Source: Gammaproteobacteria bacterium
GTDB lineage: Bacteria > Pseudomonadota > Gammaproteobacteria > Eutrophobiales > Eutrophobiaceae
Reading direction: 5' to 3'
DNA: 64,000 nucleotides
Assembly (NCBI GenBank): GCA_965198875.1
Contig: CBDAPU010000001.1
Span: 1,544,996 to 1,608,995, forward strand
A program made the position numbers and the translations under genes. Position 1 is the first letter of the stretch; each line of letters opens with the position of its first letter. Shown here piece after piece: positions 26,738-61,020 of the stretch. Below the pieces are notes generated by a model. The model saw nothing but the letters and a program-made list of their open reading frames with translations. It did not search any database and was not told the DNA's origin.

Positions 26738-26912
26738 GTCATCACCCCACCCTCCAGTACTGCTGCCCGAGACAACATCAAGTCGTCCGTATCGCTATTA
26801 AGCGTCACCACCTCACCCACCGGCGCTGCTGTCCGGCAACATCAGGAACGCCTTTAACGGCACCTTCTCATCACCACCTCACCCACCGGCGCTACTGTGC
26901 GCGACATCTTGC
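26738..26912. repeat. three tandem degenerate direct repeats (~44-bp unit, 65-bp period) between apaH and folA
   Basis: GTCATCACCCCACCCTCCAGTACTGCTGCCCGAGACAACATCAAG / GTCACCACCTCACCCACCGGCGCTGCTGTCCGGCAACATCAGG / TCATCACCACCTCACCCACCGGCGCTACTGTGCGCGACATCTTG at 26738, 26804 and 26868. Confidence 0.7.
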
Positions 26913-26994
26913 ATATGCTAAGAGGACATTAGCCAATGTGATCATTTTCACATCGCCCGACTTCTCGGTTTTTTTTCTATGCGGGCGGGGTCTT

Positions 26995-27483
26995 TTATCT
27001 GCGCTTCTCCAACACCAGAAAACAACAGGCATAGGCATTATTCTCATCGGCCTTTCGCTCCTTGCGTGCTATCTCCTTCCAGTCACCGGGATCACATTGC
27101 GGAAAAAAGACATCACCTCTCACCCTGGCGTTGACTTGTGTTAAGTAGATGCGCGACGCTCGGGGGAGCAGTTGCCCATACAAATCAGCTCCCCCTATAA
27201 TCATCACTTCCTCTTTATCGGCGCAGTAGCCAAGGGCGCCGTCAATATCATGAAAAACAGTGCAACCATCCGCCCTGTAGGGATGTTGTCTCGTGATGAT
27301 GATGTTCTCCCGGCCCGGTAATGCCCGCCCGATGGACTCATGGGTTTTTCTGCCCATGATGATGGGTTTGCCCATCGTGATCGCCTTGAAGTGTCGCAAG
27401 TCCGAAGACAAACGCCACGGCAGGGCGCCATTGGCGCCGATAACACCTTGCTCATCCATGGCCACGACAAGGGATATTCGCAT
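26995..27483 (-). CDS. folA: dihydrofolate reductase
   Basis: MRISLVVAMDEQGVIGANGALPWRLSSDLRHFKAITMGKPIIMGRKT. Confidence 0.9.
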   Translation of the reverse strand: MRISLVVAMDEQGVIGANGALPWRLSSDLRHFKAITMGKPIIMGRKTHESIGRALPGRENIIITRQHPYRADGCTVFHDIDGALGYCADKEEVMIIGGADLYGQLLPRASRIYLTQVNARVRGDVFFPQCDPGDWKEIARKERKADENNAYACCFLVLEKRR

Positions 27484-27489
27484 CTTCTT

Positions 27490-28284
27490 CTATACCGAGA
27501 TAGGCGCAGTAATGGACGGATGTGTGTTGTAATTACTTAATTCAAAATCACTGTACTGAAAATCAAATATGTTTCTAATATCAGGGTTGATGCTCATGGA
27601 AGGCGGGGCAAAGGGTGTTCTGGTTAATTGACAATCAGCCTGTTCCAGGTGGTTGGTATACAAATGAGCATCGCCCAGCGTATGCACAAACTCGCCTGGT
27701 TTAAGATTAGTCACCTGCGCTACCATCATGGTCAACAAGGCGTAGGAGGCGATGTTGAACGGTACGCCAAGAAAAATATCGCAAGAACGCTGGTAGAGTT
27801 GGCATGACAACGAGCCCCTGTTCACATAAAACTGGAAAAACGCATGGCAAGGCGCCAACGCCATTTTATCCAGTTCCGCCACATTCCAGGCACTAACAAT
27901 TAAACGGCGAGAGTTGGGGTTGGTTTTAATCTCGTTAATAACATGGCTTATTTGATCAATGGTCTTGCCGTTAGTAGCAGGCCAGGCTCGCCATTGCACG
28001 CCATAGACCGGCCCAAGCTCGCCATTTTCATCAGCCCATTCATCCCAAATTGTGACATTATTTTCTTGCAAATAGCGGATGTTGGACTCGCCTCGCAAAA
28101 ACCACAATAACTCATGGATGATGGACTTCACATGCAGCTTCTTGGTTGTGAGCAGGGGAAAACCTGCTGTTAAATCAAAGCGCATTTGATAACCAAACAC
28201 GCTTAGCGTACCCGTGCCAGTGCGGTCATCTTTCTCAACGCCATGTTGGCGCACGTGTTTTAGCAGTTGCAGATATTCTCGCAT
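27490..28284 (-). CDS. thyA: thymidylate synthase
   Basis: Canonical ThyA throughout, including the active-site region ([12 protein letters not shown]). 264 aa. Confidence 0.95.
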
Positions 28285-28334
28285 GGATAATGCCGTTAGC
28301 TTTTGAAGCTCATCAATGTTATCCCGTCATACAT

Positions 28335-29132
28335 TCAAACAGCCGTGCTTTTATGCGCTTTGCGATAGGCCAATATCAACAACACGGCGCCGATCACGAT
28401 CATGGGTATGGACAGGATCTGCCCCATGCTCGACCAGTGAAAACCGATATAGCCAATATGCTGATCCGGCATACGCACAAACTCCACACAGAAACGGATG
28501 CTCCCGTAGAGCAGAAGAAATAATCCAAACACAGACCCGGACGGCCTCGGCTTCATGGAAAACCACCAGAGGATAACAAACAAAACCGCGCCTTCAAAAA
28601 ACGCCTCATAGAGCTGGGAGGGGTGTCTTGGCAGTGCATCCACATGGGGGAATACCATGCCCCAGGGCAGATCAGTGGGTCTGCCCCAGAGCTCACCGTT
28701 GATAAAATTTCCAATGCGTCCGCTAAATAAACCAAGCGGCGCCACCGGCGCCAGGAAGTCGCCAACCTCGAGCAGTTTTTGATTGATCCTGCGACCATAT
28801 AAATAGCCGGCGATGATGACGCCTATCAACCCCCCATGAAAAGACATGCCCCCTTGCCACACCTTAAAAACAGCCAACGGATTATCGATATAGTACGGCA
28901 GATGATAAAACAGCACCGAGCCTAACCGGCCGCCAAGGATAATCCCCAAGGTGCAGTAGAAAACCACATCGGCCACCTGCTCTTTCCGCCAATTAAAATG
29001 CGTCAGTCTCGCCCGATAATGTAATAACCACCAGGCAAGCAGAATACCGGCCACATAACTCAGCCCATACCAGCGCACCTGTAACATCCCAATGTCGATG
29101 GCAACCGGATCAATATCGGGATAAGTCAGCAT
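28335..29132 (-). CDS. lgt: prolipoprotein diacylglyceryl transferase
   Basis: Lgt signature blocks (YGLSYVAGILLAWWL; G.RIGNFINGELWGRPT). I prefer the start at MLTYPDIDPV (29132, ~266 aa). The longest ORF to 29351 would overlap the next gene. Confidence 0.85.
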   Translation of the reverse strand: MLTYPDIDPVAIDIGMLQVRWYGLSYVAGILLAWWLLHYRARLTHFNWRKEQVADVVFYCTLGIILGGRLGSVLFYHLPYYIDNPLAVFKVWQGGMSFHGGLIGVIIAGYLYGRRINQKLLEVGDFLAPVAPLGLFSGRIGNFINGELWGRPTDLPWGMVFPHVDALPRHPSQLYEAFFEGAVLFVILWWFSMKPRPSGSVFGLFLLLYGSIRFCVEFVRMPDQHIGYIGFHWSSMGQILSIPMIVIGAVLLILAYRKAHKSTAV

Positions 29133-29278
29133 GGCGGTTAATAGTTTAGCGGATAATCCCGGATCAAGCGCAGTTGAAAGTGGCGCCGGTTTAACTTGAG
29201 AAGGCGCGCTGACATAGACTGCCCGCATCATGCCGAAAACAGCTAGGTAAATGTGCCGGCCTGGCGGATAATGGCGAT

Positions 29279-31333
29279 ATGAGCACAACCAATTCCCTGA
29301 TTTACGAGACCAGCCCCTATCTGCTGCAACATGCCACCAATCCGGTGGCATGGTATCCCTGGTCAGAGAAGGCCCTGACGCTCGCCAAAGAACAACATAA
29401 ACCCATATTGCTTTCCATCGGTTACTCGGCCTGTCATTGGTGCCATGTTATGGCGCACGAATCATTTGCAGATGCAAAGACGGCCGCATTGATGAACGCC
29501 CATTTTATTAATATCAAGGTTGATCGGGAAGAGCGCCCGGATCTGGATAAAATCTACCAAACTGCACAACAACTTTTGAACCGCAGGACCGGCGGCTGGC
29601 CGTTGACGATGTTTTTAATGCCGGAAAATCAGGTCCCCTTTTTCGGCGGCACCTATTTCCCGCCAGAGCCACGTCATGGCTTGCCGGGTTTTAAGGCCCT
29701 GCTCATCCGCATTAACGCATTTTATCAAAACGAACGGGCTACGTTGCTGGAGCAGAACGCATCGTTTCTTGAGGCCCTGAGGCAAACAGAGAAGACGGAA
29801 ACTCCGGATGAGGCGGTGAGCCTGGATATTAGGCCCATTCAGCGCGCTATCGCAGAGCTAAAAGACAGCTATGATCCCAGGGACGGCGGTTTTGGCCCGG
29901 CGCCAAAGTTCCCGCACCCCACTCATCTTGATCTGTTGCTGAAAAACCCCTTTACCGAAGGTCCCGCTGAGGCGAGAGAAAATGCCGACATGGCCTGCTT
30001 GACGTTGCAAAAAATGGCCCAGGGCGGGATCCATGATCAACTGGGCGGCGGTTTCTGCCGATATTCAATCGATGCACACTGGCGGATCCCCCATTTTGAA
30101 AAAATGTTATATGACAACGGCCCGCTGTTGGCTCTCTACGCCGACGCCTTCCATATAACACAAAACGCACTTTTTGAGCGCACATCATACGGCATTGCAA
30201 ACTGGGTCATGCGTGAGATGCAATCCGCCGAAGGGGGGTACTTCTCTTCCCTGGACGCCGACTCAGAAGGCGAGGAAGGTAAGTTTTATGTGTGGGATAA
30301 AACAGAAATACAATCGCTACTGACAGATAAAGAGTATGCTCTGATAGCGAGACATTATGGTCTTGATAAACCCGCCAACTTTGAAGGACGATGGCATCTG
30401 CATGTCAATGAAACCCTGGATGATATGGAGAAGACAACATCACAGGATATAAAGCGGCAGATAACAAACGCCGCAAATACACTGTTTCACGCCAGGGAAA
30501 AACGCATAAGACCGGGCAGGGATGAGAAGATGCTAACCTCCTGGAACGCCTTAATGATAAAAGGCATGATAACAGCGGCATTGCGCCTGCAAGAGGATAA
30601 ATACTATGACTCGGCCGCCCGTTGCCTTGCGTTTATCCATGCAAAACTCTGGGACGGGGAGCGACTTCGGGCAACCTGTAAAGACGGCAGGGCGCATTTC
30701 AACGCCTACCTGGATGATTATGCCTTTCTCATCGACGCCATTTTGCATGTGCTCTCTTATAGATGGTCAGGTAAGTGGCTTTCCTTTTCAATGCAACTGG
30801 CCGATACCCTGATAGAGCAGTTCTACGATCAGGAGCAAGGCGGTTTCTTCTTCACCTCCCATGATCATGAGGCATTGCTGCAACGGCGCAAGGATTTTAT
30901 GGATGATTCATTACCCTCGGGAAACGGTATCGCCACTTTGGCCCTCCTTAACCTCGGCCATTTAACCGGCGAGCGGCGTTATCTTGCGGTTGCTGAGCAA
31001 ACCTTAAAATGCAGTTGGACATGGCTAGGGCGTCTGCCCCATGCCTGTCACGCCATGTTGTTGGCGTTGCTGGAGTTCAACAAGCCAAAGCCCCTGATCA
31101 TCATACGCGGGGAGCCATCCCTTATTGATACATGGCAAAACGAGTTACGCTCAATGAATGACATGCGCGCTGTGGTTTTCGCCATTGCCGATAAAACCCA
31201 ACACCTGCCGGCGTTGCTACGGGAGAGATGGGCTCAGGGTAAGGCCACCGCCTTTATCTGTGAAGGAAGCCGATGCCTGGAGCCCGTCCATGATCTGCAC
31301 AAATTAAAACAACTGCTCATACACCACCGCTAA
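29279..31333 (+). CDS. thioredoxin-domain protein of the DUF255/YyaL family (N-terminal Trx fold + (alpha/alpha)6 barrel)
   Basis: [22 protein letters not shown]...[23 protein letters not shown] is the DUF255 signature. 684 aa. Confidence 0.8.
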
Positions 31334-31402
31334 ACAACAACACGCTCGCCGTTACGCTCGCCGCCCATCCATGCCGCCCGGACAAGCGCAGGGGCATGAG
31401 GA

Positions 31403-31540
31403 GGATGATCTTGCGAGCGCCGATACCTCCACCCCAAGCATGATTTACTCAAAGGTTCCTTTTGGATGATGATCTTGCGAGCGCCGATCCCTCCACCTCG
31501 CCTTCGACTATCATGACTTCACGCCCTCCCCTGATGCCCC
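31403..31540. repeat. two tandem repeats (64-bp period) GGATGAT(GAT)CTTGCGAGCGCCGAT(A/C)CCTCCACC followed by CATCATGACTTCACGCCCTCC
   Basis: Copies at 31403 and 31464. The 3' flank shares the dispersed CATCATGACTT motif. Confidence 0.7.
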
Positions 31541-31622
31541 TTTACCCGCCTTGCAAGCACGCAGATAAACACAGGCGGGGCAGCCTCGCCCGTCCTGCCC
31601 TGTCGTTGGGTTTCGGTATTGA

Positions 31623-32468
31623 CTATCCCTGATAGGTCTGGCTCGCCAATGAAATACGGGTCGCTATGCTTTCCACCGCCATGATCAGGCAATAACTCAA
31701 TGCGGACTTTTCCGAATAGTCAGACGGCACCAGGTTGGACACCCGTCCATCTTCAATAAACCCCCAGGCCCGCCCCCATTTTTCACGGTTCTCGGTATCG
31801 AACACGCCGATGGCGATACCCTGGTCTTTTTTCACCAGGGAAAAACAGGGGATGTCGGTATACCCATCACCCACTATGATCATCTGCCTGATGGGCACCC
31901 GCAGTTTCGCCTGCTCGACCTTGCGATTGACCTCAAAGGGTTTACCGGCGAAATCGGCGCCGAATATGCCTTTTTGAATATGAAAAATATAACGGGTCTT
32001 ATCGGTGAAGCTGACAATCCTCCTGGGGTAGCGAATGTGGCCTTTGTCATCGTAATGAAAATCCGAGGCCCAGATCTCGCTAAACTCATGGGCGATGGGC
32101 GTGTGCCGCAATACCTCGCCGATCCCGGAGCTGATCAGATAAAACTCGAGGGTAATGCGGGGATTGGCCCTGTTCGCGGCATCACGTAGTCTCGCAAAGA
32201 TCGACTCAACCCCGGCATATAACGGCAGCTCCGCACCCCATCGGGCGAGGCTGTCCCGGCTAATGGGCGCAATCTCGCCGGCATCGGATTTCTCGATCAT
32301 TTTATATAGATACGCCGGCACCGGGTCCCAGCCATCCTCCATCAACGGGCCAACTTCATGGCGCCAGAAACCGGGGACATCCACCCCGCAACGGCTTAAA
32401 TAACCGGAAGTGCTATCCGGCGCCAGGGTGTCGTCAAAATCGAATATAACGGCGATAGTCTCGTGCAT
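31623..32468 (-). CDS. HAD-superfamily hydrolase
   Basis: Motif I VIFDFDDTL. Motif IV-like IIVGDGYTD. 281 aa. Confidence 0.6.
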   Translation of the reverse strand: MHETIAVIFDFDDTLAPDSTSGYLSRCGVDVPGFWRHEVGPLMEDGWDPVPAYLYKMIEKSDAGEIAPISRDSLARWGAELPLYAGVESIFARLRDAANRANPRITLEFYLISSGIGEVLRHTPIAHEFSEIWASDFHYDDKGHIRYPRRIVSFTDKTRYIFHIQKGIFGADFAGKPFEVNRKVEQAKLRVPIRQMIIVGDGYTDIPCFSLVKKDQGIAIGVFDTENREKWGRAWGFIEDGRVSNLVPSDYSEKSALSYCLIMAVESIATRISLASQTYQG

Positions 32469-32664
32469 TGATGGTTCCTGCTCTTAAATCAGATGGACTC
32501 TACATTCCAGGTGATGTAATTGAAACTGCTCATATAACGCGCTACTGTTGCGGCCAGGTGTCGCCAGTCTCCGGGCCTCTGAAGGAGCGCACCCCTATGG
32601 GATGCGCCTAACGCTATGCGATCAGGCGGAGCTCGCCAAAGTGAAGCCGCCCGGATCACCTGTG

Positions 32665-32730
32665 CTCATCATGACTTAACGCCCCCATCTTGTGCGGGCT
32701 TGCCTGCCTTCATCATGAAGGGGCGGCTTG
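32665..32730. repeat. solo copy of the dispersed CTCATCATGACTTAACGCCCCC...CTTGCCTG element, upstream of the TonB-dependent receptor gene
   Basis: Sequence similarity to 31507-31540 and 58936-59000. Confidence 0.5.
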
Positions 32731-32841
32731 ATAAAATCCTTAACATTGTTCACGACATCAAAGTTCGCTAAACTGCTTGCCATGATCTGGGCTTTTTCTC
32801 ACACAGGCATAACCGGTTTTTACTAACCCGACGGGCCTGGT

Positions 32842-35064
32842 ATGTTAGAACGCATTTTCATTAACGTAATCCAGCGCCGCGCCTTGATGTTTTATCTTGG
32901 CGCTTCTCTTTCCACACCGCTATGCGCCCAGAGCACCCTGGAAGAGGTTATCGTCACAGCGCAGAAGCGTGAGCAACGTCTGCAAGACGTCCCCGTGTCT
33001 ATTTCAGCGCTACTGCCCTCATCGGTTAATGATTATCTTGGCTCCGGCGAGAATATTCGCGCCTTGGCCCAGCGCGTCCCCAGTCTACAAATCGAATCAT
33101 CGAACGGCAGACAGCTACCCCGATTTTATATTCGCGGTTTGGGTAATACCGATTTTGACGTCAACGCCAACCAGCCCGTATCCATGATCTATGATGATAT
33201 TGTCCTTGAGAATGGCGTGTTAAAGAGCATTCCCCTCTATGACGTTGAACGTATAGAAGTCCTGCGCGGCCCGCAAGGCACATTGTTTGGGCGTAATACA
33301 CCGGCCGGCATTGTTAAAATCGACTCGGTTAAACCCACATACGAGAGAGATGGTTATCTACAGACATCTTACGGCAAGCGTGATAACCGCACGGTAGAAG
33401 GTGCGCTCGCCACTGGATTAACCGACAAGATGGCCGCCAGGGTGGCGTTCAAATATCAGGGACGAGGTGACTGGATCGAGAACAGAGGCCCCGGCGGCGA
33501 TGTGGGCGGTTTTGATGAGATAGCCTATCGCTTGCAATTCCTGTTCGAACCGGTGGAAGACTTCAGTGCGTTGATTAAATTTCATGGCTACCACATCGGT
33601 GGCGATACGCCGGCGACATTCTATGCAAATGCACTGGCCCTGGGTAGTGCGGGCGTGCGCCCCGGTTTTGACGCAAACCTCATAACACAGGACAGTTTAA
33701 CGGATGGGCATATCGATCATGTCGGCTTCGCCGCCAAACTGGAATATGCTTTTAACGGGTTTCTCTTCACGTCCATTAGCGGCTATGACGCCATAGACAG
33801 CCTGGGTCGGGGTGATGTTGACGGCGGCATTGTGGGCGGCCCGGGCAACATAGGCGAGCTTGGGTTTAATGCGTTTTTCGGCGTATCGACCGGTGATGGC
33901 TTATCCGATCATGCACAGATCAATCAGGAGTTTCGCCTGTCTCGAACCCATGGGCAGTGGTTCTATCAACTGGGTCTGTTCTACTTCAAGGAAGACATTA
34001 CTGTGGATAACATCAACTACAATACCGCCACGGATGCGTTATCGGATCTCACATTCACTATTCAGGATACAACATCCTTTGCCCTGTTCGCCCAGGTGGA
34101 ATATGCATTAACCGACTATCTCACATTAACCGGTGGTATTCGTTGGACCAGCGATGAGAAGGCGCTGGAGATCGTCCCGGGCGTCGGTTCACAAGCGATG
34201 TCGGCCAGCATCGAGAAGGACGACAGTTATATCGATGGCGACATAGCCGTCACCTTTGATGTGAATGAGGCGTGGGCGGTTTATGCCCGATTTGGCAGCG
34301 CTTCACGGGGGCCGGTCACCATTGGTCGATTCGGGTTCACGAGTACGGCCGAGACGGAGCAATTATTCTCATATGAGGGCGGTTTCAAAGCGGACTTGTT
34401 TGCTGGCCGTCTACGCTGGCAGGGTGCTGGTTATTACTATGAGATCCGGGATCAGCAACTCACCGCCACCGGCGGCGTGACGAACATAAACACATTATTG
34501 AATGCGGAGAGAACCATTGGCGCCGGTTTCGAGTCTGAAATGCAAATGCTCGTTAGCGAGAACTTTCGCATCAACACAAACCTCAGCTATAACTTCACAG
34601 AGATAAAGGACAGCGCCTTGCGTGATGATCTCTGTGGCTCTACACCCACCTGTACCGGCCTCGACCCGGTTGTCGGCTCCAGGGTTGGCGGCTTCGGGCC
34701 GGTAACCGAAGTCTCCATCGATGGCAACCCGTTACCACGGGCGCCGAGATGGATATTTAACATTGACGCCTGGTATGGCGTTGATATGTCTTTGGGCGCC
34801 CTCTACGTCTCCACGGACTGGAACTATCGTAGCGATGCAAACATCTTCTTCCATGAATCGGTGGAGTTTGTTGCAGATGCACGCTGGATAGGCGGGTTAC
34901 GCGCTGGTTATAAGACCCGGGACAAAAAATGGGACATCGCCGTTGTGGGCAGAAACATAACAAATGCAATAGCGGTTGATGGCGCCATTAACTTCCTTAA
35001 TCTGGCCGCTTTTATCAATGAACCGAGCTATTGGGGCGTGGAAGCCAGGTATGATTTCCACTAG
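32842..35064 (+). CDS. TonB-dependent outer-membrane receptor
   Basis: Signal peptide. TonB-box/plug (LEEVIVTAQKR...VEVLRGPQGTLFGRNTPAGIVK). Long beta-barrel. 740 aa. Substrate unknown. Confidence 0.8.
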   Translation: MLERIFINVIQRRALMFYLGASLSTPLCAQSTLEEVIVTAQKREQRLQDVPVSISALLPSSVNDYLGSGENIRALAQRVPSLQIESSNGRQLPRFYIRGLGNTDFDVNANQPVSMIYDDIVLENGVLKSIPLYDVERIEVLRGPQGTLFGRNTPAGIVKIDSVKPTYERDGYLQTSYGKRDNRTVEGALATGLTDKMAARVAFKYQGRGDWIENRGPGGDVGGFDEIAYRLQFLFEPVEDFSALIKFHGYHIGGDTPATFYANALALGSAGVRPGFDANLITQDSLTDGHIDHVGFAAKLEYAFNGFLFTSISGYDAIDSLGRGDVDGGIVGGPGNIGELGFNAFFGVSTGDGLSDHAQINQEFRLSRTHGQWFYQLGLFYFKEDITVDNINYNTATDALSDLTFTIQDTTSFALFAQVEYALTDYLTLTGGIRWTSDEKALEIVPGVGSQAMSASIEKDDSYIDGDIAVTFDVNEAWAVYARFGSASRGPVTIGRFGFTSTAETEQLFSYEGGFKADLFAGRLRWQGAGYYYEIRDQQLTATGGVTNINTLLNAERTIGAGFESEMQMLVSENFRINTNLSYNFTEIKDSALRDDLCGSTPTCTGLDPVVGSRVGGFGPVTEVSIDGNPLPRAPRWIFNIDAWYGVDMSLGALYVSTDWNYRSDANIFFHESVEFVADARWIGGLRAGYKTRDKKWDIAVVGRNITNAIAVDGAINFLNLAAFINEPSYWGVEARYDFH

Positions 35065-38824: not shown

Positions 38825-38930
38825 CCTGACGGCGCCGCTCACAATCCCTTCCATAACCCCCAGAGCAAAATATGAAGAGACGCTCCTTTTAAGGCGCCGC
38901 TAAAACCCTTCCATCGCCCTCACCCAAAGG

Positions 38931-45166: not shown

Positions 45167-45314
45167 ATGATCCTAAGGTTTAAGCCGTTACAAAGATAAA
45201 GACCGGTTCGATAACGTAGCGGGGATGAGGAGGCCCTGTTGGGGGGTATCAACGGCCGGGTATGCAGGGGCTATCGTCGATGTAAAGGGATGAAGATACC
45301 CTGTTGGGCGGGGC

Positions 45315-45803
45315 TCAGCGGTATTTATAGAGCGGCGGGGCGCCGTCTGCGGCGCTCTGGTATTTGACGGTGAAGTCCGCCAGGCCCTTCAAGGCGTCTT
45401 CCATGTTCTTATCGGCTCTCACCTGGAATGAATCAATGCCGCATCTTTGCATAAAGAATAACTGATCCCTCAACACATCCCCCACTGCCCGTAACTCACC
45501 CCGGTAGTTATACTTATCACGCAACAGACGCGCATGGGAGTAGGCGCGGCCATCCCTGAAATCAGGGAACGCTAATGCTATCAAGTCAAACACATGCAAG
45601 ACGTTGGCGATATCATCTACATTATCATCACCGTCCAGGCAAATGGCGATGTTTCCCTGATGTTGCGAGAGCGCTTGCTGATTATCAACCCAGTAGGCCA
45701 ACGGGATGATAAAATCTCCATCAGGCAGGGGATCTTCAGGTGCGAGAGCAACTATTCTCTGCCAATCGTCGGTGAGTATTTTGCCGCATTTAATGACTTG
45801 CAA
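45315..45803 (-). CDS. DUF934-family protein (sulfite-reductase-associated)
   Basis: The conserved DUF934 body is present. It sits immediately downstream of the sulfite-reductase hemoprotein gene, as in Pseudomonas. Start uncertain: a TTG at 45803 would overlap the cysI stop by 14 bp; the longest ORF to 45911 would overlap it by 120 bp. Confidence 0.55.
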   Translation of the reverse strand: MQVIKCGKILTDDWQRIVALAPEDPLPDGDFIIPLAYWVDNQQALSQHQGNIAICLDGDDNVDDIANVLHVFDLIALAFPDFRDGRAYSHARLLRDKYNYRGELRAVGDVLRDQLFFMQRCGIDSFQVRADKNMEDALKGLADFTVKYQSAADGAPPLYKYR

Positions 45804-52809: not shown

Positions 52810-52838
52810 CCTGGAGGATCAATGCAATCTTCAGCATC

Positions 52839-52939
52839 GGTGTTTAGTGCGTTCATCGCCGTGTTGTTATCCATCTAACACGCCGTTTATCTGCATCATG
52901 CAAGGTGTTTAGTGCGCTCATAGCCGTGTTGTTACCCAT
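52839..52939. repeat. two tandem repeats (65-bp period) GGTGTTTAGTGCG(T/C)TCAT(C/A)GCCGTGTTGTTA(T/C)CCAT between the radical-SAM gene and rmuC
   Basis: Copies at 52839 and 52904. Confidence 0.7.
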
Positions 52940-53189
52940 TTTACAGATCACTCACGGCAGCAAACGATCTGCCGCATCAACATAAAAACCCGCATCCAGC
53001 CCGGGCTATTCATTTATCTGCAAGCCATAATACCATCCCTGGCAAGGCAAAACCCTCTAAAGATGTTTCAATCAGCCCCTGGATGTATAACGAGCGGTTT
53101 GCATTTCTGCAAAAATATCCTCGCCCGGGCGCCATTTTATATAAACCGGCGTGTATCTCGGTTAAGGTAATCTGGCATAATAATCCCAC

Positions 53190-54611: not shown

Positions 54612-55427
54612 ATGCATGGATTGAAAGCGGTCCTGTTCGATATGGACGGCACGATTGCTGATAATGAGGATATACACCGGCAGGCCTTTAATATTGCCTT
54701 TGAGGCGTTCGGCTACCCGCTTAACTGGTCCCGTGAAGCGTATCAATCCCTGCTTGGTATCTCCGGTGGCAAGGAACGCATACGCCACTGCTTAAAGATG
54801 CACCCTCTCATCGAAGGTAGCCATGAGGCGCTATGCCAGATCACAGATGCGATACACCTGAAAAAATCCGCTGTATACAGACAGCGATTGCTGGCGGATA
54901 AAATCACCTTGCGCCCGGGCGTTCGCAGGCTTATCACCGAGTTACGAAACGCCGGCCTTCGCCTCGCCATCGCCACCAGCTCATCCAGAGAGAACGTCGA
55001 TACTTTATTACACCATGCCTTTGGCCCGGCAGGCATTGATTTATTCACAACCATTGTGACCTCGGACAGTGTAGAAGATAAAAAACCATCGCCGGCGGTA
55101 TATTATTCTGCCCTGTCTGAATTGGACGTGGCCCCTGAGAGCTGTATCGCCATAGAAGATACCGAAAATGGTAATCTGGCGGCGCTCGCCGCCGGTATTA
55201 ACACCATCATCACCACCCATCCCCTGACACGGGATCACGATTTTACCGGCGCTGCGCTTGTCCTTGATCAGCTCGGTGAGCCGGACAGCCCGTTTGAGGT
55301 GCTGGCCGGCAACCACCATCACCATCATTACGTTGATCTAAAACTCCTGCGAACCATACATGGGATTGCCGGGCCCCATAAACCTGCCGTCGGTTATGTC
55401 AATGCGGGCGAAGTTGCGGCAAGATAA
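54612..55427 (+). CDS. HAD-IA hydrolase (beta-phosphoglucomutase/CbbY-like) with a natural His5 run near the C-terminus
   Basis: Motif I VLFDMDGTIAD. Motif III K. Motif IV EDTENG. ...AGNHHHHHYVD... 271 aa. Confidence 0.7.
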   Translation: MHGLKAVLFDMDGTIADNEDIHRQAFNIAFEAFGYPLNWSREAYQSLLGISGGKERIRHCLKMHPLIEGSHEALCQITDAIHLKKSAVYRQRLLADKITLRPGVRRLITELRNAGLRLAIATSSSRENVDTLLHHAFGPAGIDLFTTIVTSDSVEDKKPSPAVYYSALSELDVAPESCIAIEDTENGNLAALAAGINTIITTHPLTRDHDFTGAALVLDQLGEPDSPFEVLAGNHHHHHYVDLKLLRTIHGIAGPHKPAVGYVNAGEVAAR

Positions 55428-55480
55428 AGCGGATGATTTACCTTTGGCGGCCAAGTGGATAGCCATGAAACACAGCTAAC

Positions 55481-56416
55481 ATGACCCTCACGGAATTACG
55501 CTACATTGTCGCCGTCTCACGGGAATTACACTTTGGCAGGGCCGCGGCGGCCTGTTATGTCAGCCAACCCACTCTCAGTGTCGCCGTAAAGAAGCTGGAA
55601 GATGAGCTCGATGTGACCATCTTTGAGCGACATCAACATGACGTCACCATCACCCCCGTCGGTCAACGAATTATTGATCAGGCCATGCTTGTGCTGGAGC
55701 AGGCAAGCTCAATCAAAGCCATCGCTGAGGAGGGTAAAGATCAGTTAAAAGGCACCTTAAAACTGGGGATCATATACACCATAGGGCCTTTTTTACTACC
55801 GCATCTTATCCCGTTGTTAAACCGGGAGACACCGGATCTGGTGCTGATCATAAAAGAAGACTTTACCGTAAACCTGGCGGATAGATTAAAACGTGGCGAA
55901 CTAGATATGATCATCGTATCAACCCCCTTTGAACAACCCGGCGTCACAGTGGAGGTGTTATATAAAGAACCCTTCACCGTCGTGTTACCCAACAACCATA
56001 AACTGGCCCGTAAAAAACACATCAAAACCGATGATCTGATTGAGGAGACATTATTATTACTGAAATCCGGCAACTGCTTCCGGGATCAGGTCATGGACGC
56101 CTGTCCCGCCTGCAAGAGCGACACCTTTTCAAAGGACAAGATCCAGAAAACCCTGGAAGGCAGCTCCATTGAAACGATTAAACAAATGGTCGCCGCCGGA
56201 TCAGGGGTGACCATATTGCCCTCCACAGCCATACAGCAACACGATGGTCTTAACAAGCTGGTTGAATACCGGCCATTCGCAAAACCAGCGCCACAAAGAG
56301 ATGTCGCCCTCGCCTACCGTCATTCCTTTCCCCGGAGGCGATTGGCGGGGCTTATCTGCGATATGATCCGGCAGTGTGAGATCCCGAATACGAAACACTC
56401 ACACATCGGTGAGTGA
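55481..56416 (+). CDS. oxyR: LysR-family hydrogen-peroxide sensor OxyR
   Basis: LysR HTH (MTLTELRYIVAVSRELHFGRAAAACYVSQPTLS). Redox-Cys pair with OxyR spacing (GNC-FRDQVMDA-C, 9 residues apart, like C199/C208). Overall very similar to Pseudomonas-type OxyR. Confidence 0.8.
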   Translation: MTLTELRYIVAVSRELHFGRAAAACYVSQPTLSVAVKKLEDELDVTIFERHQHDVTITPVGQRIIDQAMLVLEQASSIKAIAEEGKDQLKGTLKLGIIYTIGPFLLPHLIPLLNRETPDLVLIIKEDFTVNLADRLKRGELDMIIVSTPFEQPGVTVEVLYKEPFTVVLPNNHKLARKKHIKTDDLIEETLLLLKSGNCFRDQVMDACPACKSDTFSKDKIQKTLEGSSIETIKQMVAAGSGVTILPSTAIQQHDGLNKLVEYRPFAKPAPQRDVALAYRHSFPRRRLAGLICDMIRQCEIPNTKHSHIGE

Positions 56417-56436
56417 CGTTCTCTTCGGAAGAGGTG

Positions 56437-57810
56437 CTATTTGATCACTAAAAAAGCGGCGGCATTACCCCGGATCACCCTCAGCAGCAAGGTGTTCTTC
56501 AGGGGATCAACCAGTTTCAAAAAAGAGTTTAGATGAGCAATGTTCTTGTGATTCACAGAGGTGATAATATCCCCTCTCCTTAACCCCGCCGACCAGGCCC
56601 GTGTGCCCCGTTGCACACCGACCACCACCACCCCCTTTATTTTTCCATAATAGGGATGGGCTTCATCCAGATCACCCAGTGTTACGCCTTCCAGTCTTGG
56701 GTTGACAATCTGCGGGTTATCCGGAAACGCTTTAGCGGCCGCAATGTTGGCCTGTAGTCGCCTCTTTTTGCCGTCTCTCACTATTTCAAACCGCACCTCC
56801 TCACCGACCGGCAACAAACCAATGTGGTTTCTCACATCACCGGCCATCTTGATGGGCTTGGCGTTAATGGATGTGATGATGTCGCCGGGCTGTAGGCCGG
56901 CTTTATCAGCGGGCGAGTCCGGCAAGACCTTATTCACCACCGCGCCGCTTTGCTTTGTAATGCCGAAGGCCTCGGCCAAATCAGGGTTTAAGTCCTGCAC
57001 ATGAATACCAATAAAACCCCGTTCAACGACCCCCTTATCCAGCAACTGCTCCATGACCTGTAACGCCAGATTAACAGGGATGGCGAAGCCAATGCCAATA
57101 TTGCCGCCGCTACGCGAGAAGATAGCGGTATTGATACCAATGAGCTCGCCGTTCAGATTAACCAGCGCACCGCCGGAATTGCCCGGGTTAATCGATGCGT
57201 CCGTTTGAATAAAATCTTCATAACCCTCAATGCCGAGACCGCTACGACCCAGCGCACTGACAATGCCGGAGGTCACGGTTTGCCCCAAACCAAAAGGGTT
57301 ACCGATGGCCACCGCAAAGTCGCCCACGCGCAGATTATTCGAATCCGCCGGCTTTATATCAACCAGATCTTCTGACGGGATTTTAATCACGGCCACATCG
57401 GTTGCCGGATCAGTACCGACTATCTCTGCATCAAGGTGTCTTCCATCACGCAAGGTGACGGTTATTTGCACGGCGTTTGCGATCACATGATGATTGGTTA
57501 ATACCAGGCCACGTTTGGCGTCAACGATCACGCCGGAGCCCAGGCTTTGGGTTTTTCTTTCAATGGGTTGATTGGGCATATTAAAGAAGCGGCGAAAAAA
57601 CGGATCGGCAAACAAGGGGGTTTGTTTTAACTGTACCCGTCCTTCACTTGCAATGTTCACAACAGCCGGGGTAACCTCATCGAGCATCGGGGCGAGGCTG
57701 GGCAGGGCTTTATTGTTGATCGACTGCGGGAGCGCTGCATGCGCGGATATGAAATGACATAAACCGAAAAGCCATATCAAGACGGAATAACGTTGTTGTT
57801 TGACGATCAC
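56437..57810 (-). CDS. periplasmic serine endoprotease, DegP/DegQ/MucD (HtrA) family, two PDZ domains
   Basis: Catalytic triad regions (TNHHV; D; GNSGG). Two PDZ domains. I prefer the start at the GTG at 57810, giving the signal peptide MIVKQQRYSVLIWLFGLCHFISAHAA. The annotated longest-ORF start at 57903 lies upstream of the putative sigma-E promoter. Confidence 0.8.
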   Translation of the reverse strand: MIVKQQRYSVLIWLFGLCHFISAHAALPQSINNKALPSLAPMLDEVTPAVVNIASEGRVQLKQTPLFADPFFRRFFNMPNQPIERKTQSLGSGVIVDAKRGLVLTNHHVIANAVQITVTLRDGRHLDAEIVGTDPATDVAVIKIPSEDLVDIKPADSNNLRVGDFAVAIGNPFGLGQTVTSGIVSALGRSGLGIEGYEDFIQTDASINPGNSGGALVNLNGELIGINTAIFSRSGGNIGIGFAIPVNLALQVMEQLLDKGVVERGFIGIHVQDLNPDLAEAFGITKQSGAVVNKVLPDSPADKAGLQPGDIITSINAKPIKMAGDVRNHIGLLPVGEEVRFEIVRDGKKRRLQANIAAAKAFPDNPQIVNPRLEGVTLGDLDEAHPYYGKIKGVVVVGVQRGTRAWSAGLRRGDIITSVNHKNIAHLNSFLKLVDPLKNTLLLRVIRGNAAAFLVIK

Positions 57811-57845
57811 TGCGCCACCCGATGATTTAACTGATTGTTGTGTTG

Positions 57846-57871
57846 TTAGAGAAGAAGGATGATAAAAGTTC
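57846..57871 (-). promoter_or_regulatory. sigma-E (RpoE/AlgU)-type promoter for the DegP-like protease gene
   Basis: The minus strand reads GAACTT-N15-TCTAA (consensus GGAACTT-N16-TCTGA/TCAAA), ending ~30 nt upstream of the GTG at 57810. Confidence 0.45.
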
Positions 57872-58083
57872 AGATGGACGGACAAGGCGCTGTTGGAGAA
57901 CATACCCCACCACCATAAACCATCTTCATCTTCAACAGGTTAAGGGGCATACCGGCCGCTTCGTACATCCGTGTACCCTTCGGCATAAGCACACCCCTAT
58001 ACAAGTACAAGTCTCGGCAAAGACGGCGCCATCTTCCTGGATCTTGCATCTTCTGATCACGCCAGCCGGCTCTCAATATGGGC

Positions 58084-58518
58084 TTAATGATTAACGGTGA
58101 TTTTTTTAGCTTGCTCCTTCTCTTGCTTGGGTATGGAGATCTCCAGCACACCATGTTTACCGCTCGCTTCAATTTTTTCCTCATCCACACCGTCAGGCAA
58201 ACTGAATTGACGATAAAAAGCGCCTCGCACCCTTTCTATCTTTTTATACCCATTCTTCTCTTCGCCCTGCTCATGCTCACGCCCACCTTTCAGGCTAAGC
58301 ACACCATCCTCCGTGGTAACGTCAATATCCCGAGGGTCCACACCCGGCAGATCGACCAGGATAAGAAAACGACTCTCCTCTTCTTTCACATCCACAGCAG
58401 GTCGCCAATGACCGCCAATGGCTCTCGATTGCGGCCGCGCTTTAAGCCCATGGAAGAACGACTCGGCCAGACCCAGCCTGTCAACAAAATGAAATGGTTC
58501 ATAACGAATGAATGACAT
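58084..58518 (-). CDS. ibpA: small heat-shock protein (Hsp20/alpha-crystallin, IbpA-like)
   Basis: MSFIRYEPFHFVDRL... alpha-crystallin domain ...GVLEISIPK... 144 aa from the ATG at 58518. The longest ORF to 58692 has an unlikely 58-aa leader. Confidence 0.85.
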   Translation of the reverse strand: MSFIRYEPFHFVDRLGLAESFFHGLKARPQSRAIGGHWRPAVDVKEEESRFLILVDLPGVDPRDIDVTTEDGVLSLKGGREHEQGEEKNGYKKIERVRGAFYRQFSLPDGVDEEKIEASGKHGVLEISIPKQEKEQAKKITVNH

Positions 58519-58553
58519 ACTCTCTCTCCAGAATGAAATTATCTTGAGAACCC

Positions 58554-58581
58554 ATATAGGGCCGTACATCAAAAAATCAAG
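58554..58581 (-). promoter_or_regulatory. sigma-32 (RpoH) heat-shock promoter for ibpA
   Basis: The minus strand reads CTTGATT-N13-CCCTATAT (consensus CTTGAAA-N13/14-CCCCATNT). Its -10 element ends ~36 nt upstream of the ibpA ATG; GGAGAGAG Shine-Dalgarno. Confidence 0.5.
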
Positions 58582-58648
58582 CCTCCGACCCATTGTGATG
58601 CACCAGACATGTTGATGGATTAGGCGTGGTTTTAAGTGAATGATGTTG

Positions 58649-58887
58649 TGTACACCTTCGGGAAGTCGCCTGATGGCAACAGACATATTCATTTGATGAA
58701 GATACGTTAAACTTGTGCATACCTTCGGGGTGCCGCCTGATGACAGCTATTCAATCCCGTGTCTGAACCTGCATCTCATTAGGCGGTGTTCATGCTGCAG
58801 ATAGTGATGTTGTCGGCGGGGGCTCTTCTATGCGAAGACAAGCGACAACCACATCCAAATCGAGATAGTGATGTTACCGGCGGTGGG
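58649..58887. repeat. two different tandem repeat pairs (66- and 64-bp periods) upstream of ibpA
   Basis: GTG(T/C)A(C/T)ACCTTCGGG(A/G)(A/T)G(T/C)CGCCTGATG(G/A)CA at 58649 and 58715. (C/G)AGATAGTGATGTT(G/A)(T/C)CGGCGG(G/T)GGG at 58798 and 58862. A related CCGTGTACCCTTCGGCATAAGC lies at ~57975. Confidence 0.65.
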
Positions 58888-59020
58888 ATATTCTATATTC
58901 TTCCATGTCTTTCGATCAGCGAGCGTCCACCTCGGCTCATCATCATGACTTGACGGCCTGCCCGGCGTGGACGAGCCGCATCGCCCTCGTTGCCTGATCA
59001 AGAAAAAGCCATGCCTTGAA

Positions 59021-59665
59021 TTAAATCCAGTAAGCCGTAGTCGTCATCACCCTGGCGCAATAACCCATGCTCACCTTGACGGGCTCCGGTAACTCGGCGG
59101 CGCCGGCCGCCAACGCATCCCCTGCATGTGTTAATTCATCCTCGCGGATCTGCTCTAAAATCTGCCTGCTCTTATGATCGTTTTCCGGTAACTGCGAAAG
59201 ATGCCTATCCAGATGGGCGACCACCTGACGTTCTGTTTCAAGCACAAAACCCAAACTCCACTTCTCTCCCAGCAAACCGGCCATTGCGCCAATCGCAAAT
59301 GATCCCGTATACCAGATCGGATTAAGATAACTGACATGACTGTTTAATGCGACCACCCGCTCTTCACACCAGTGCAGGTGATCGCGCTCCTCGGCTGCGG
59401 CCTGTTGCAGGGAATGACGCACCCCGGGCTCTTTCGCCACCAAAGCCTGACCTGCATACAGGGCCTGTGCGGCCACCTCCCCGGCATGATTAACACGCAT
59501 CAGTCCTGCTGAATGACGTCTTTCAGATCGCGCTAAGGGTTGCTCTTCCTCACCGCTGGCAGGGCTTGGGCGCGCCGGCTGGCCATGTTTGGCGAAGATA
59601 GCCGAGAAGGCCCTATCAAGGCCCATGATCAGCTCATCGACTGAATTGAACGTGCGTTGACCCAT
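59021..59665 (-). CDS. coq7: demethoxyubiquinone hydroxylase, Coq7 family (di-iron)
   Basis: Di-iron carboxylate motifs (E...EERDHLHW; E...DELTHAG). The RVNHAGEVAAQALYAGQ block matches Pseudomonas Coq7. Start taken at MGQRTF (59665). Confidence 0.8.
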   Translation of the reverse strand: MGQRTFNSVDELIMGLDRAFSAIFAKHGQPARPSPASGEEEQPLARSERRHSAGLMRVNHAGEVAAQALYAGQALVAKEPGVRHSLQQAAAEERDHLHWCEERVVALNSHVSYLNPIWYTGSFAIGAMAGLLGEKWSLGFVLETERQVVAHLDRHLSQLPENDHKSRQILEQIREDELTHAGDALAAGAAELPEPVKVSMGYCARVMTTTAYWI

Positions 59666-59768
59666 GCCGGGATTGTTGAAAAAAATCGCTGGAAAGTCCA
59701 GATTTATTGACACAAAAGAGGGCAGTCCGTACCATTGCTTCTTTTTTTTCGCCGTCATCTAACACACA

Positions 59769-60197
59769 ATGAAGACCTACACCGCAACACCATCGAAGAT
59801 CAGGCGTAATTGGTATCTTGTGGACGCCAGAGGAAAAGTCCTGGGAAGACTGGCTTCCAAAATCGCCCTTCGCCTGCGCGGGAAACACAAACCCGAATAC
59901 ACCCCAAACATGGACACGGGCGATTACATCGTCGTGATCAACGCCAGGGAGGTTCATGTCACCGGCAATAAGGCGAAGGATAAAATCTACTACCGTCACA
60001 GCGGCTATCCCGGGGGCATTAAGTCAACCCGCTTTGAGAAGCTGATGCAGTCAAGACCTGAGCGTGTTATTGAAAAAGCCGTGAAGGGCATGTTGCCGAA
60101 AGGCCCGCTGGGGCGTGAGATGTTTCGCAAACTACGTGTGTATGCGGACGGGCGTCATCAACATGCAGCACAACAACCACAACCCCTGGACATTTAA
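59769..60197 (+). CDS. rplM: 50S ribosomal protein L13
   Basis: [20 protein letters not shown]... Confidence 0.95.
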
Positions 60198-60199
60198 TC

Positions 60200-60592
60200 A
60201 TGGCGGAGAACATTTACTACAGCACCGGTCGCAGAAAAAGCGCCAGCGCACGGGTTTATCTCAAGCAAGGCACGGGCAACATCGTGGTGAATAATCGTAC
60301 ATTGGATCAGTATTTCGGTAGAGAAACCGGCAGGATGATCGTCAGGCAACCTTTAGAGAAGCTCGATATGATGCAACACTTTGACATTAAAGTGACCGTG
60401 GCGGGCGGTGGTATTTCAGGTCAGGCCGGCGCTATCCGCCATGGGATCAGCCGGGCGCTCATCAAATATGACGAAACCTTACGCAAACCCCTGCGTCAAG
60501 CGGGCTTTGTCACGCGCGATGCAAGAGAAGTCGAACGCAAGAAAATCGGTCTGCACAAGGCTAGGAAACGACCGCAATACAGCAAACGTTAA
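60200..60592 (+). CDS. rpsI: 30S ribosomal protein S9
   Basis: ...[16 protein letters not shown]...[11 protein letters not shown]. Confidence 0.95.
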
Positions 60593-60860
60593 GCCCTTAC
60601 ATCATCTTGACCCTTATCTGCCCATCATCGTGCGCCGATGTGGGCTGTTTTATTGCGGCAGTGGATAGCATATAAAAACACATGTCGGCTGAAAAAGTCG
60701 GCGAAGGAATAACTTTTATCGCTCATGATGATGTGACTAAAATCAAGGGAAAAGCGTGAATGACATGCCGGTAATAAAAGTGTTATCACGATCATCATGA
60801 TCAGTTGAGATAACATCAGGAGAGTCTGCGCCAGGTGAAGGCCATCAAGCTATGAGGGAC

Positions 60861-61020
60861 GAGGCAAAGTGGATGTATGCGGGACTTGCGAGAGCATCAT
60901 CATGTGACGAAACAGGCAGAGCGAGCGCAAAGCTGGGGGCTCACGCCAAGCGGGCGTCAAGTCATAGGTCAGAGGCGAAGTGGACGGTCGCGACTTGGCG
61001 AGACCATCATCATGACCGGG
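60861..61020. repeat. two ~49-bp direct repeats (111-bp period) GAGGC(A/G)AAGTGGA(T/C)G...GACTTG(C/G)CGAGA(G/C)CATCATCATG(T/A)(G/C)AC downstream of rpsI
   Basis: Copies at 60861 and 60972. Each contains the shared CTTGCGAG..CATCATCATGAC motif also seen at 31410 and 31475. Confidence 0.65.

Follow-up and report, generated by a model that had tools for sequence, protein, structure and literature searches.

Results

Seven intergenic loci of one layout

The window, that is, the whole stretch of 64 kb of gammaproteobacterial DNA analysed here, carries seven loci at which a block X of 30–45 bp is followed by a unique insert of 21–34 bp and then by X again. X is different at each locus, and in effect a sequence of about 33 bp is copied again about 65 bp further on. 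All seven occupy intergenic DNA: convergent genes flank four of them, divergent genes flank one, and the remaining two are situated between the stop of coq7 and the promoter of hsp20.

Locus A, 26736-26908 (strand not applicable): three copies, period 66/66; blocks A1 26736-26780, A2 26802-26844 and A3 26868-26908; inserts 26781-26801 and 26845-26867; between the stops of apaH (26669) and folA (26995)
Locus B, 31400-31497: blocks 31400-31433 and 31464-31497, 94% identical; insert 31434-31463; period 64; between the stops of a DUF255 thioredoxin gene (31333) and a HAD gene (31623)
Locus C, 45222-45321: blocks 45222-45255 and 45287-45321, 80% identical; insert 45256-45286; period 65; between the stops of ssb (45166) and a DUF934 gene (45315), the latter overlapped by block C2 by 7 nt
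Locus D, 52839-52945: blocks 52839-52880 and 52904-52945, 88% identical; insert 52881-52903; period 65; in the divergent gap between a radical-SAM gene (start 52809) and an rmuC-like gene (start 53190)
Locus E, 58646-58745: blocks 58646-58678 and 58713-58745, 82% identical; insert 58679-58712; period 67; upstream of a sigma32-type hsp20 promoter; a small minus-strand hairpin is kept through one compensatory change
Locus F, 58799-58896: blocks 58799-58831 and 58863-58896, 85% identical; insert 58832-58862; period 64; downstream of the coq7 stop (59021)
Locus G, 38831-38922: blocks 38831-38862 and 38893-38922, 81% identical with a 2-nt indel; insert 38863-38892; period 60–62; fills the entire gap between the stops of PNP and deoC; the weakest of the seven

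A preliminary description of this DNA had reported tandem units at five of these loci. They are present there, far beyond chance in an offset scan against shuffles, but loci C (45222) and G (38831) had been missed. Its periods of 64, 65 and 64 bp for B, D and F were reproduced, but A measures 66/66 rather than 65/64 bp and E measures 67 rather than 66 bp.

The period is constant and non-random

With at least 19 matches in a 24-nt window as the criterion, all matches at offsets of 20–250 bp in the whole window fell at offsets 64–67, at six loci. Offsets of 8–19 and 251–5000 bp gave threshold-level chance matches only (29 in 4,762 offsets). Over the full range of 8–5000 bp, strong short-range direct repeats occur in the window only at spacings of 62–67 bp. 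Looser thresholds gave eight matches at 62–68 bp vs 0.45–0.65 in shuffles.

The density here is about 100 per Mb vs about 2 per Mb elsewhere, the latter from three non-coding-type matches at 63–69 bp in other gammaproteobacterial loci totalling 1.34 Mb. This confirms a real and highly non-random set of 65-bp-spaced repeats.

The period averages 64.9 ± 1.6 bp and spans about 60–67 bp across the seven loci. Five loci combine blocks of 30–35 bp with inserts of 30–34 bp (about 33+31 bp), and loci A and D combine blocks of 38–45 bp with inserts of 21–27 bp (about 43+22 bp) at an unchanged period. Thus, block and insert lengths trade off (r = -0.93), and the period varies far less (sd 1.6) than either the blocks (sd 4.7) or the inserts (sd 4.4). 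The copies within a locus are 80–94% identical. As no pair is identical, no duplication event is recent.

Only the blocks are repeated

The blocks of different loci are unrelated, their cross-locus similarity being that of shuffled controls. The constant phasing of about 65 bp over unrelated units, which the preliminary description had put down to a possible common mechanism or constraint, is real, and it points to a shared mechanism rather than a shared sequence. Neither blocks nor inserts have a second copy elsewhere in the window, except block B, so the small mobile element also offered there is not supported. No target motif common to the putative integration sites was found, apart from a weak GG where the blocks start.

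Neither the preceding nor the following flank resembles the inserts more than shuffled sequence does, and this includes A2/A3 and B, with their blocks 90–94% identical. Since only X is duplicated and the inserts are unlike the flanks, a duplication of whole units in tandem followed by uniform decay is excluded. Tandem Repeats Finder (TRF) reported none of the seven loci in the window, as the repeat covers just a part of each unit.

The units had been called non-palindromic, rightly, since no inverted repeats involve the blocks. RNA folding gave no consistent structure: on either strand, most z-scores stayed within ±1.5. Rfam gave no match at the gathering score or at E<=10 and no resemblance to CRISPR direct repeats. 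The suggestion of a structured-RNA family is thereby not supported.

A small dispersed family is a separate phenomenon

Block B belongs to a small dispersed family, K, which is separate from the 65-bp repeats and has copies at 31400, 31464, 58907, 60856 and 60967. It forms at most a marginal 5-bp stem. Its members outside locus B, and an isolated copy of a 17-nt motif, are as follows.

58907-58960, plus strand: shortened K element; the ATCATGACTTGACGGCC motif lies within it at 58942-58958
60856-60908 and 60967-61018, minus strand: two K elements, 111 bp apart
32668-32684, plus strand: the 17-nt motif ATCATGACTTAACGCCC on its own, in a divergent gap upstream of a TonB-dependent receptor gene

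The minus-strand pair sits between rpsI and a phage remnant, in a gap of 1051 bp. It had been listed with the 65-bp loci as a 111-bp-period pair (60861/60972); the pair is real, but it is not of the 65-bp kind and consists of two K elements beside the phage remnant. Block B is indeed homologous to these units at 60.8–61.0 kb, but in the opposite orientation, not on the same strand as aligned before. Of the shared cores proposed earlier, ATCATGACTTNACGSCC occurs three times (31510, 32668 and 58942) vs 0.01 expected, but CTTGCGAGMGC by itself is not significant in the window.

Order of events and gain of DNA

At locus A, blocks A2 and A3 are 90–94% identical, A1 and A2 80% and A1 and A3 about 71%, which gives the tree (A1,(A2,A3)). 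Hence, the A2/A3 duplication is the younger one. This youngest pair, with the newest insert between its blocks, lies on the side of the AT-rich flank that adjoins A3. Such an order shows sequential growth with polarity, like that of a CRISPR array from its leader end.

At locus B, B2 is a full K element running to about 31526 and B1 is only the first 34 nt of K. There is a sharp breakpoint within a pre-existing K element, and the remainder of K follows only the second copy. This is as expected of a target-site duplication.

The orthologous gaps in relatives are 4–5 times shorter and lack the blocks, and the repeat-free gaps are equal in size. The gap of locus D is 380 bp here vs about 91 bp in relatives, and the coq7-to-hsp20 gap is 502 bp here vs about 108 bp in L088/L089. 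The relatives that lack the blocks have retained these genes as well as the same hsp20 promoter. Therefore, the repeat DNA was added in this lineage. The 64-kb window holds neither cas genes nor a CRISPR array.

Composition and a phage match of the inserts

The GC content is 44% in the inserts, 50.6% in other intergenic DNA and 58% in the blocks. The AT-richer inserts are consistent with a different origin. Searches with the inserts against the window, curated phage genomes and plasmids gave nothing meaningful. One stretch matched viral DNA.

26846-26867, plus strand: core of the newest insert of locus A, GAACGCCTTTAACGGCACCTTC, 22 nt equal to part of the tail tube gene of a P2-type phage

All 22 of its nucleotides agree, in three exact matches in IMG/VR (L091-L093). 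The match spans nearly the whole insert and is bounded by mismatches, and beyond it the viral sequence does not resemble the blocks. The matched gene encodes a Phage_tube protein (PF04985, E=5e-61). It is the only match among six inserts, with a calibrated chance of about 0.03–0.05 per scan and about 0.1–0.2 across all scans, and, though suggestive of a foreign origin of the inserts, is statistically weak.

Discussion

Off-target integration as the suspected cause

We tentatively suspect that the loci are scars of insertions of the CRISPR-integrase type made off target, that is, “neo-CRISPR” proto-arrays. The insertion process would make a very long staggered cut at an intergenic site, and a DNA piece of about 30 bp would be spliced into it. 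The host sequence of about 33 bp between the nicks would then be filled in on both sides to give X, insert and X, where X would be whatever host sequence occupied the site. The base geometry would be about 33+31 bp.

The enzyme would be the CRISPR adaptation integrase Cas1-Cas2, which is the only one known to us to give such products at these dimensions. The seven loci would be one- and two-spacer proto-arrays from a promiscuous adaptation module in this lineage. They would survive only where an insertion is harmless, between genes and mostly at convergent 3′ ends, and would since have decayed to the present 80–94% identity. What we find duplicated is arbitrary host sequence round a unique insert and nothing else. 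Also in favour of this reading are the sharp breakpoint at locus B, dimensions within the CRISPR range, the specificity of X to its locus, the polar growth of locus A and the phage match of its newest insert, the gain of DNA relative to the orthologous gaps, the AT-richer inserts, and the lack of palindromes, folds, Rfam matches and TRF arrays that other repeat types would show.

Several observations speak against the integrase. The Cas1-Cas2 ruler sets block and insert lengths separately, not their sum, and the partition at loci A and D is not directly explained by the model. Gene conversion overshooting into the insert could rescue their long blocks. Scaled up from seven loci per 64 kb, the genome would carry a few hundred, far more than the few natural cases on record. 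Moreover, the 64 kb have no cas genes or array, the sites share no target motif, the phage match is statistically weak and no event is recent.

It appears somewhat doubtful to us that the chromosome of this lineage carries hundreds of proto-arrays with one or two spacers, every one built on its own host sequence, or else that a novel Cas-independent enzyme that measures 65 bp and captures phage DNA put the inserts in place. If true, such proto-arrays would preserve, as natural fossils, a record of rampant DNA capture off target and of CRISPR arrays arising de novo.

Alternative explanations

The tight period leaves room for an undescribed, Cas-independent mutational process that copies 30–45 bp of sequence once more at a set spacing of about 65 bp. 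A template switch in replication or repair with a structural ruler, or an undescribed long-stagger integrase, could do so with the ruler acting on the period. The period sd being so much smaller than those of block and insert, together with their trade-off, suits such a process, as do the window without a cas gene, the lack of a common target motif and a phage match that may be chance. However, five of the seven loci fit a fixed 33+31 geometry, the source of the unique insert is left unexplained and the microhomology between block and insert ends predicted by jump-back-and-return switching is absent at most loci. We know of no bacterial process with a 65-bp ruler. We consider this process unlikely. 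The blocks could instead be functional sites for protein binding, or short RNA modules, held about 65 bp apart by selection while the linker drifts in sequence at fixed length. A distance of 65 bp is roughly six helical turns, the period is constant with a varying partition, the blocks are conserved and GC-rich with AT-rich linkers, locus E keeps a hairpin by compensation, and D, E and F are each located upstream of a promoter. Yet no common factor could read blocks that share nothing between loci, regulation is not expected between the convergent stop codons of four loci, no fold is consistent, and the orthologous gaps of relatives do without the blocks despite the same genes and hsp20 promoter; such sites are improbable.

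An ordinary minisatellite, in which slippage duplicated whole units of about 65 bp and part of each then decayed, would account for head-to-tail, intergenic arrays of 2–3 copies, and the 3′ end of the locus D insert is weakly like the sequence before its first block (p = 0.04). It is largely refuted by blocks of 90–94% identity next to a rest of the unit at random level, and neither the missing TRF array nor the sharp end of B1 agrees with it. Slippage also gives no reason for one period over unrelated sequences. We consider this origin very improbable. Chance coincidence or an assembly artefact is scarcely credible. The source is a single metagenome-type contig of one assembly, but 6–8 matches stand against 0.02–0.65 expected, and the copies differ by 6–20% with indels, whereas duplications made by an assembler are identical. 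The loci also lie within normal, syntenic housekeeping DNA.

Comparison with known systems

Mycobacterial interspersed repetitive units and variable-number tandem repeats (MIRU/VNTR), of mycobacteria and other bacteria, resemble the loci in being intergenic, head-to-tail, tens of bp long and of few copies. However, a MIRU repeats the whole unit and has a family sequence, whereas here only a 30–45-bp part is repeated, TRF is blank and the loci are unrelated. The earlier proposal of a VNTR/MIRU-like minisatellite is thus not supported, and the preliminary interpretation as a whole is partly supported.

The REP/BIME elements of enterobacteria likewise prefer gaps at gene 3′ ends, especially convergent ones, and are lineage-specific intergenic filler. 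They are imperfect palindromes with a common consensus and often alternate in orientation, whereas the blocks here are neither palindromic nor consensus-sharing; only the small K family comes near. We rejected a REP/BIME or MITE origin, as no inverted repeats involve the blocks and no dispersed copies were found save those of block B.

A canonical CRISPR has the same repeat in all units, usually in all arrays of one system, with uniform spacers and a period of about 55–75 bp. The loci share with it the order repeat-spacer-repeat, unique spacers, a 60–72-bp period and, at locus A, polar growth at one end, but each has its own “repeat” in 2–3 degenerate copies and no cas lies within 64 kb. With copies only 80–94% identical, blocks unrelated between loci and no cas in the window, a canonical array was rejected. 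The earlier dismissal of CRISPR thus holds for arrays, but its argument from spacers of about 21 bp does not, as the inserts measure 21–34 bp (30–34 bp at five loci) in a repeat-spacer-repeat anatomy.

The loci would be flagged as questionable CRISPRs, like the “False-CRISPR” elements (Zhang & Ye 2017, PMC5294841), in being repeat-spacer-like micro-arrays without cas. That catalogue groups by shared repeat sequence into tandem repeats, STAR-like and simple repeats, with about 40% unexplained, whereas the repeats here are unrelated, the period is the unifying feature and the STAR signature is absent.

Off-target Cas1-Cas2 integration was demonstrated in E. coli, and its products were inferred in Yersinia pestis and Sulfolobus islandicus and termed “neo-CRISPR” loci (Nivala, Shipman & Church 2018, Nat Microbiol 3:310, as represented in PMC7054753, PMC6698737 and bioRxiv 10.1101/148544). 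As far as those accounts portray them, they differ from our loci in that the density here is far higher, the events are all old (80–94% identity), blocks are longer and inserts shorter at two loci and there is one weak phage match only. The likeness, within the same accounts, is that host sequence particular to the locus and as long as a repeat is duplicated round a unique insert of spacer size, dispersed outside arrays, at a site reusable for a second unit and with a period in the CRISPR range. Although the loci are not CRISPR arrays, integration of the CRISPR type is the best available explanation, one that we hold with less than even confidence.

Phasing of the intergenic repeats

The whole window was compared with itself at fixed offsets, at a threshold of at least 19 matches in 24 nt. 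Over offsets of 20-250, matches occur only at 64-67 and mark six loci, at 26.7, 31.4, 45.2, 52.8, 58.65 and 58.8 kb. At offsets of 8-19 and 251-5000, threshold-level matches in the window come at the chance rate (29 in 4,762 offsets). Looser thresholds give eight matches at offsets of 62-68 against 0.45-0.65 in block-shuffled controls, and an artefact or chance is a barely credible source of the phasing.

A seventh, weaker locus with a period of 60-62 lies at 38.8 kb. In 1.34 Mb of other gammaproteobacterial loci, three non-coding-type matches at 63-69 bp were found, about 40-fold fewer per base than in the window. A search for older, decayed events returned five weak matches against about three expected, none convincing. 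The first 26 kb of the window are devoid of any 65-bp locus.

The loci of the preliminary description were recovered by both a gap-free repeat search and the direct offset scan. They are real; two further loci, at 45222 and 38831, had been missed, and the period given as 66 at 58646 is in fact 67.

Anatomy of the loci

Limits of the blocks (locus-specific duplicated sequences) and the inserts (unique stretches between two blocks) were set by local alignment at each locus.

Block and insert lengths at the seven loci
Locus A (26736-26908), copies A1-A2: block 43-45 bp, insert 21 bp
Locus A, copies A2-A3: block 38-39 bp, insert 27 bp
Locus B (31400-31497): block 34 bp, insert 30 bp
Locus G (38831-38922): block 30-32 bp, insert 30 bp
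Locus C (45222-45321): block 34-35 bp, insert 31 bp
Locus D (52839-52945): block 42 bp, insert 23 bp
Locus E (58646-58745): block 33 bp, insert 34 bp
Locus F (58799-58896): block 33-34 bp, insert 31 bp

Every locus shows the same layout in register, that is, a sharp left edge, a conserved block and then a stretch of random-level identity. The period is 64.9 ± 1.6 bp across the loci, and the copies are 80-94% identical. The inserts resemble the sequence before the first block and after the last one only at shuffle level (mean z of 0.7 and 0.3), even where the blocks are 90-94% identical. Hence, the loci are built as [X]-unique-[X] and are not decayed tandem duplications of a whole unit. The same observation speaks against the earlier suggestion of a minisatellite, as does Tandem Repeats Finder, which reports no array of about 65-bp period in the window and none at the seven loci. 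An ordinary VNTR is thus very improbable.

The blocks of different loci are unrelated, with mean local scores of 12.6 and 12.3 in the two orientations against 11.9 when shuffled. A constant period across unrelated blocks supports the common mechanism that had been proposed. The alternative proposal of a mobile element finds no support, as neither blocks nor inserts recur in the window, in 89 related loci, in curated phages or in plasmids. The inverted-repeat search found the blocks non-palindromic and without REP-, BIME- or MITE-like arms. Nor is a structured-RNA family supported by our analysis: single units take no consistent fold on either strand, and Rfam matches none of the loci at the gathering score or at E<=10, giving only a tRNA and chance snoRNA-like matches in coding DNA.

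Blocks have a GC content of 58%, inserts 44% and other intergenic DNA 50.6%. Stacking the loci on their edges reveals a weak GG at the block starts and nothing else. That the loci are functional sites held in phase would accord with a constant period, but we consider this improbable. Promoter and terminator scans are at or below the shuffle expectation, and k-mer recurrence among the gaps recovers only the core of a separate family, K. Both E blocks (58646-58745, minus strand) can form the hairpin GYUGYC-AUCA-GGCGRC, in which one stem position is changed on both sides, from U-A to C-G, between the two copies.

Three further candidates were rejected. Mini-ORFs begin at runs of ATG in loci B, C and E; inspection ruled them out, since the periods are not divisible by 3 and the peptides lack conservation. 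A C/D-box reading (RUGAUGA...CUGA) of the GATGA-rich block starts is not backed by any Rfam match, and the host is a bacterium. Template and variable repeats of a DGR are discounted by mismatches that are not adenine-specific and by the absence of a reverse transcriptase.

Genomic context

The window is core chromosome, with apaH, folA, thyA, lgt, a TonB-dependent receptor gene, nucleoside-salvage genes, uvrA, ssb, cysI, an EF-G paralogue, zapE-like and rmuC-like genes, degP, hsp20, coq7, rplM and rpsI. No cas, integrase or transposase gene is among the genes of these 64 kb. Four of the loci (A, B, C and G) sit where two genes converge, between their stop codons. D occupies the promoter gap of a divergent gene pair, and E and F the stretch between the coq7 stop and the conserved sigma32-type hsp20 promoter.

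The nearest relatives (UvrA 83% and Coq7 66-70% identical; contigs of 3.6-3.8 Mb) have their gene order in common with the window. In the genome collection, the best relative has a 66% identical Coq7; in the metagenome collection, the best one has a 46% identical ApaH. The coq7-hsp20 gap is 502 bp here and about 108 bp in the relatives, and the rSAM-rmuC gap 380 and about 91 bp, whereas repeat-free gaps are equal in size. Moreover, the relatives' loci show no 65-bp phasing. The repeat loci are therefore DNA gained in this lineage.

The extra DNA stems only partly from the 65-bp events, which contribute 131 bp of the roughly 400 bp gained in the coq7-hsp20 gap. At 2.41 Mb, the source contig is smaller than those of the nearest relatives, yet several intergenic gaps are 4-5 times longer than in the fetched loci L001, L088, L089, L009 and L059. 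This combination points to a reduced genome in which selection for compactness is relaxed.

Several neighbouring features were noted on the way.
10980-11064, minus: tRNA-Leu(CAA) in a 600-bp gap, the sole RNA gene detected in the window
12000-16000: GC of 58-60% against about 52% elsewhere, with a class-III aminotransferase gene and an autotransporter beta-domain gene; may be horizontally acquired
58084-58692: ORF 58 codons too long for hsp20, which truly starts at 58518
58519-58600, minus: sigma32-type promoter CTTGAT-N14-CCCTATAT upstream of hsp20, conserved in position as CTTGAA-N14-CCCCACAT in L088 and L089
59021-59758, minus: coq7, 159 aa in the database call against 245 aa permitted by the ORF and 214-217 aa in relatives; the start in the deposited record is therefore probably wrong

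A separate dispersed family

The preliminary description had several loci sharing a core. The core exists, but as part of the small dispersed family K and not as a common unit of the phased loci; K differs from the units of A, C, D, E, F and G. The sequence ATCATGACTTNACGSCC occurs at 31510, 32668 and 58942, three times against 0.01 expected. Block B (plus strand) and both units of a 111-bp pair (minus strand) align over about 45 nt as ATGATGATG.TCT.GC.AG...TCCACYTYGCCT, and the sequence after locus F is a shortened copy. K is thus an element of about 45 nt, often followed by ATCATGACTTNACGSCC, and is present 5-6 times in 30 kb, on either strand.

Copies of K
31400-31526
32668-32684, an isolated ATCATGACTTNACGSCC
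58907-58960
60856-60908, minus
60967-61018, minus
about 61185, minus

At best, K has a marginal 5-bp stem with one or two compensatory changes, and it is absent from all fetched loci, relatives included. Copy B2 is a full K element, while B1 matches only nucleotides 1-34 of it, with unrelated sequence following. Hence, 34 bp of an element already in place have been re-copied, as a defined piece, across the 30-bp insert.

The gene-free gap of 1051 bp between rpsI and a phage remnant (60593-61643) is dense in short repeats, with GAGGCRAARTGGA at 60861, 60972 and 61184, several copies of CATCATCATG and numerous small inverted repeats. The gap may represent the decayed terminus of a prophage or its attachment region.

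Phage match at locus A

A 22-nt core of the newest locus A insert (26846-26867) is identical to a stretch of a P2-type phage tail tube gene (PF04985) in three IMG/VR contigs, with mismatches on both sides and viral flanks unlike the blocks. In calibration, a composition-like 16-mer gave at least 120 matches and a codon-permuted 19-mer none. Chance expectation for a 22-mer is about 0.03-0.05 per scan, and five other insert scans were negative. As the family-wise probability is about 0.1-0.2, the match is only suggestive of a foreign origin. A gapped extension into block A2 added 6 score units at a chance of 0.03 and was set aside.

Phage remnants lie beyond 61.6 kb (61644-64000, GC 59%).
61644-62882, minus: Mu F-like minor head protein gene
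63192-63491, plus: gpE-type tail assembly chaperone gene

The remnant lacks the tail sheath and tube genes usually found ahead of gpE, and stop codons interrupt its downstream frames. The gpE-type chaperone shows that this lineage was once host to a P2-like myovirus, which is distant from the matching phages. No link between the remnant and the protospacer donor could be established, the chaperones being only 42% identical over 33 residues and the window having no tail tube gene.

Origin of the loci

The product expected of a transposition-like reaction with a stagger of about 33 bp has the form seen here: a target duplication of some 33 bp, different at each locus, that flanks a unique insert of some 30 bp. 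DDE transposases duplicate 2-15 bp and casposases 14-15 bp. To our knowledge, duplicating a target as long as a repeat around an insert as long as a spacer is peculiar to Cas1-Cas2. We therefore tentatively read the loci as scars of off-target insertion of the CRISPR-integrase type, at somewhat below even confidence. At locus A, the copy tree is (A1,(A2,A3)), and the newest pair, which encloses the newest insert, adjoins the AT-rich flank; this would fit sequential acquisition with the newest unit on the AT-rich side.

Against integrase scars, the period is tighter than block or insert, whose lengths trade off (r = -0.93, mainly from loci A and D), while a CRISPR ruler does not fix their sum. 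Moreover, no locus retains an identical copy pair, and the density is unprecedented for off-target integration. The geometry could be rescued if a base of about 33+31 bp were later altered by gene conversion between neighbouring copies, overshooting by about 10 bp into the insert with the period kept. Template switching predicts junction microhomology, which is absent at most loci. A mechanism of another kind, with a ruler for the period itself, is somewhat less likely than integrase scars; if cas genes are absent, a constant 65-bp ruler on arbitrary sequence would point to an undescribed mechanism of DNA insertion or duplication.

The loci bear on how new CRISPR arrays arise. If scars sit in about one of five intergenic gaps, off-target integration would be observable in nature, and its site preference, ruler behaviour on non-canonical targets, decay rate and fitness filtering, by which only harmless gaps survive, would be readable from sequence. 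Tandem Repeats Finder does not see such loci, and array finders would class them as 'questionable CRISPRs'; the large unexplained class of false CRISPRs may therefore contain similar cases.

In E. coli, off-target integration was seen under over-expression of Cas1-Cas2, and the natural cases we know of are few and circumstantial. Nivala et al. 2018, as cited in PMC7054753, PMC6698737 and 10.1101/148544, showed it in E. coli and inferred it for Y. pestis and S. islandicus. The loci are most likely an unusually dense new instance of a known but rarely seen process.
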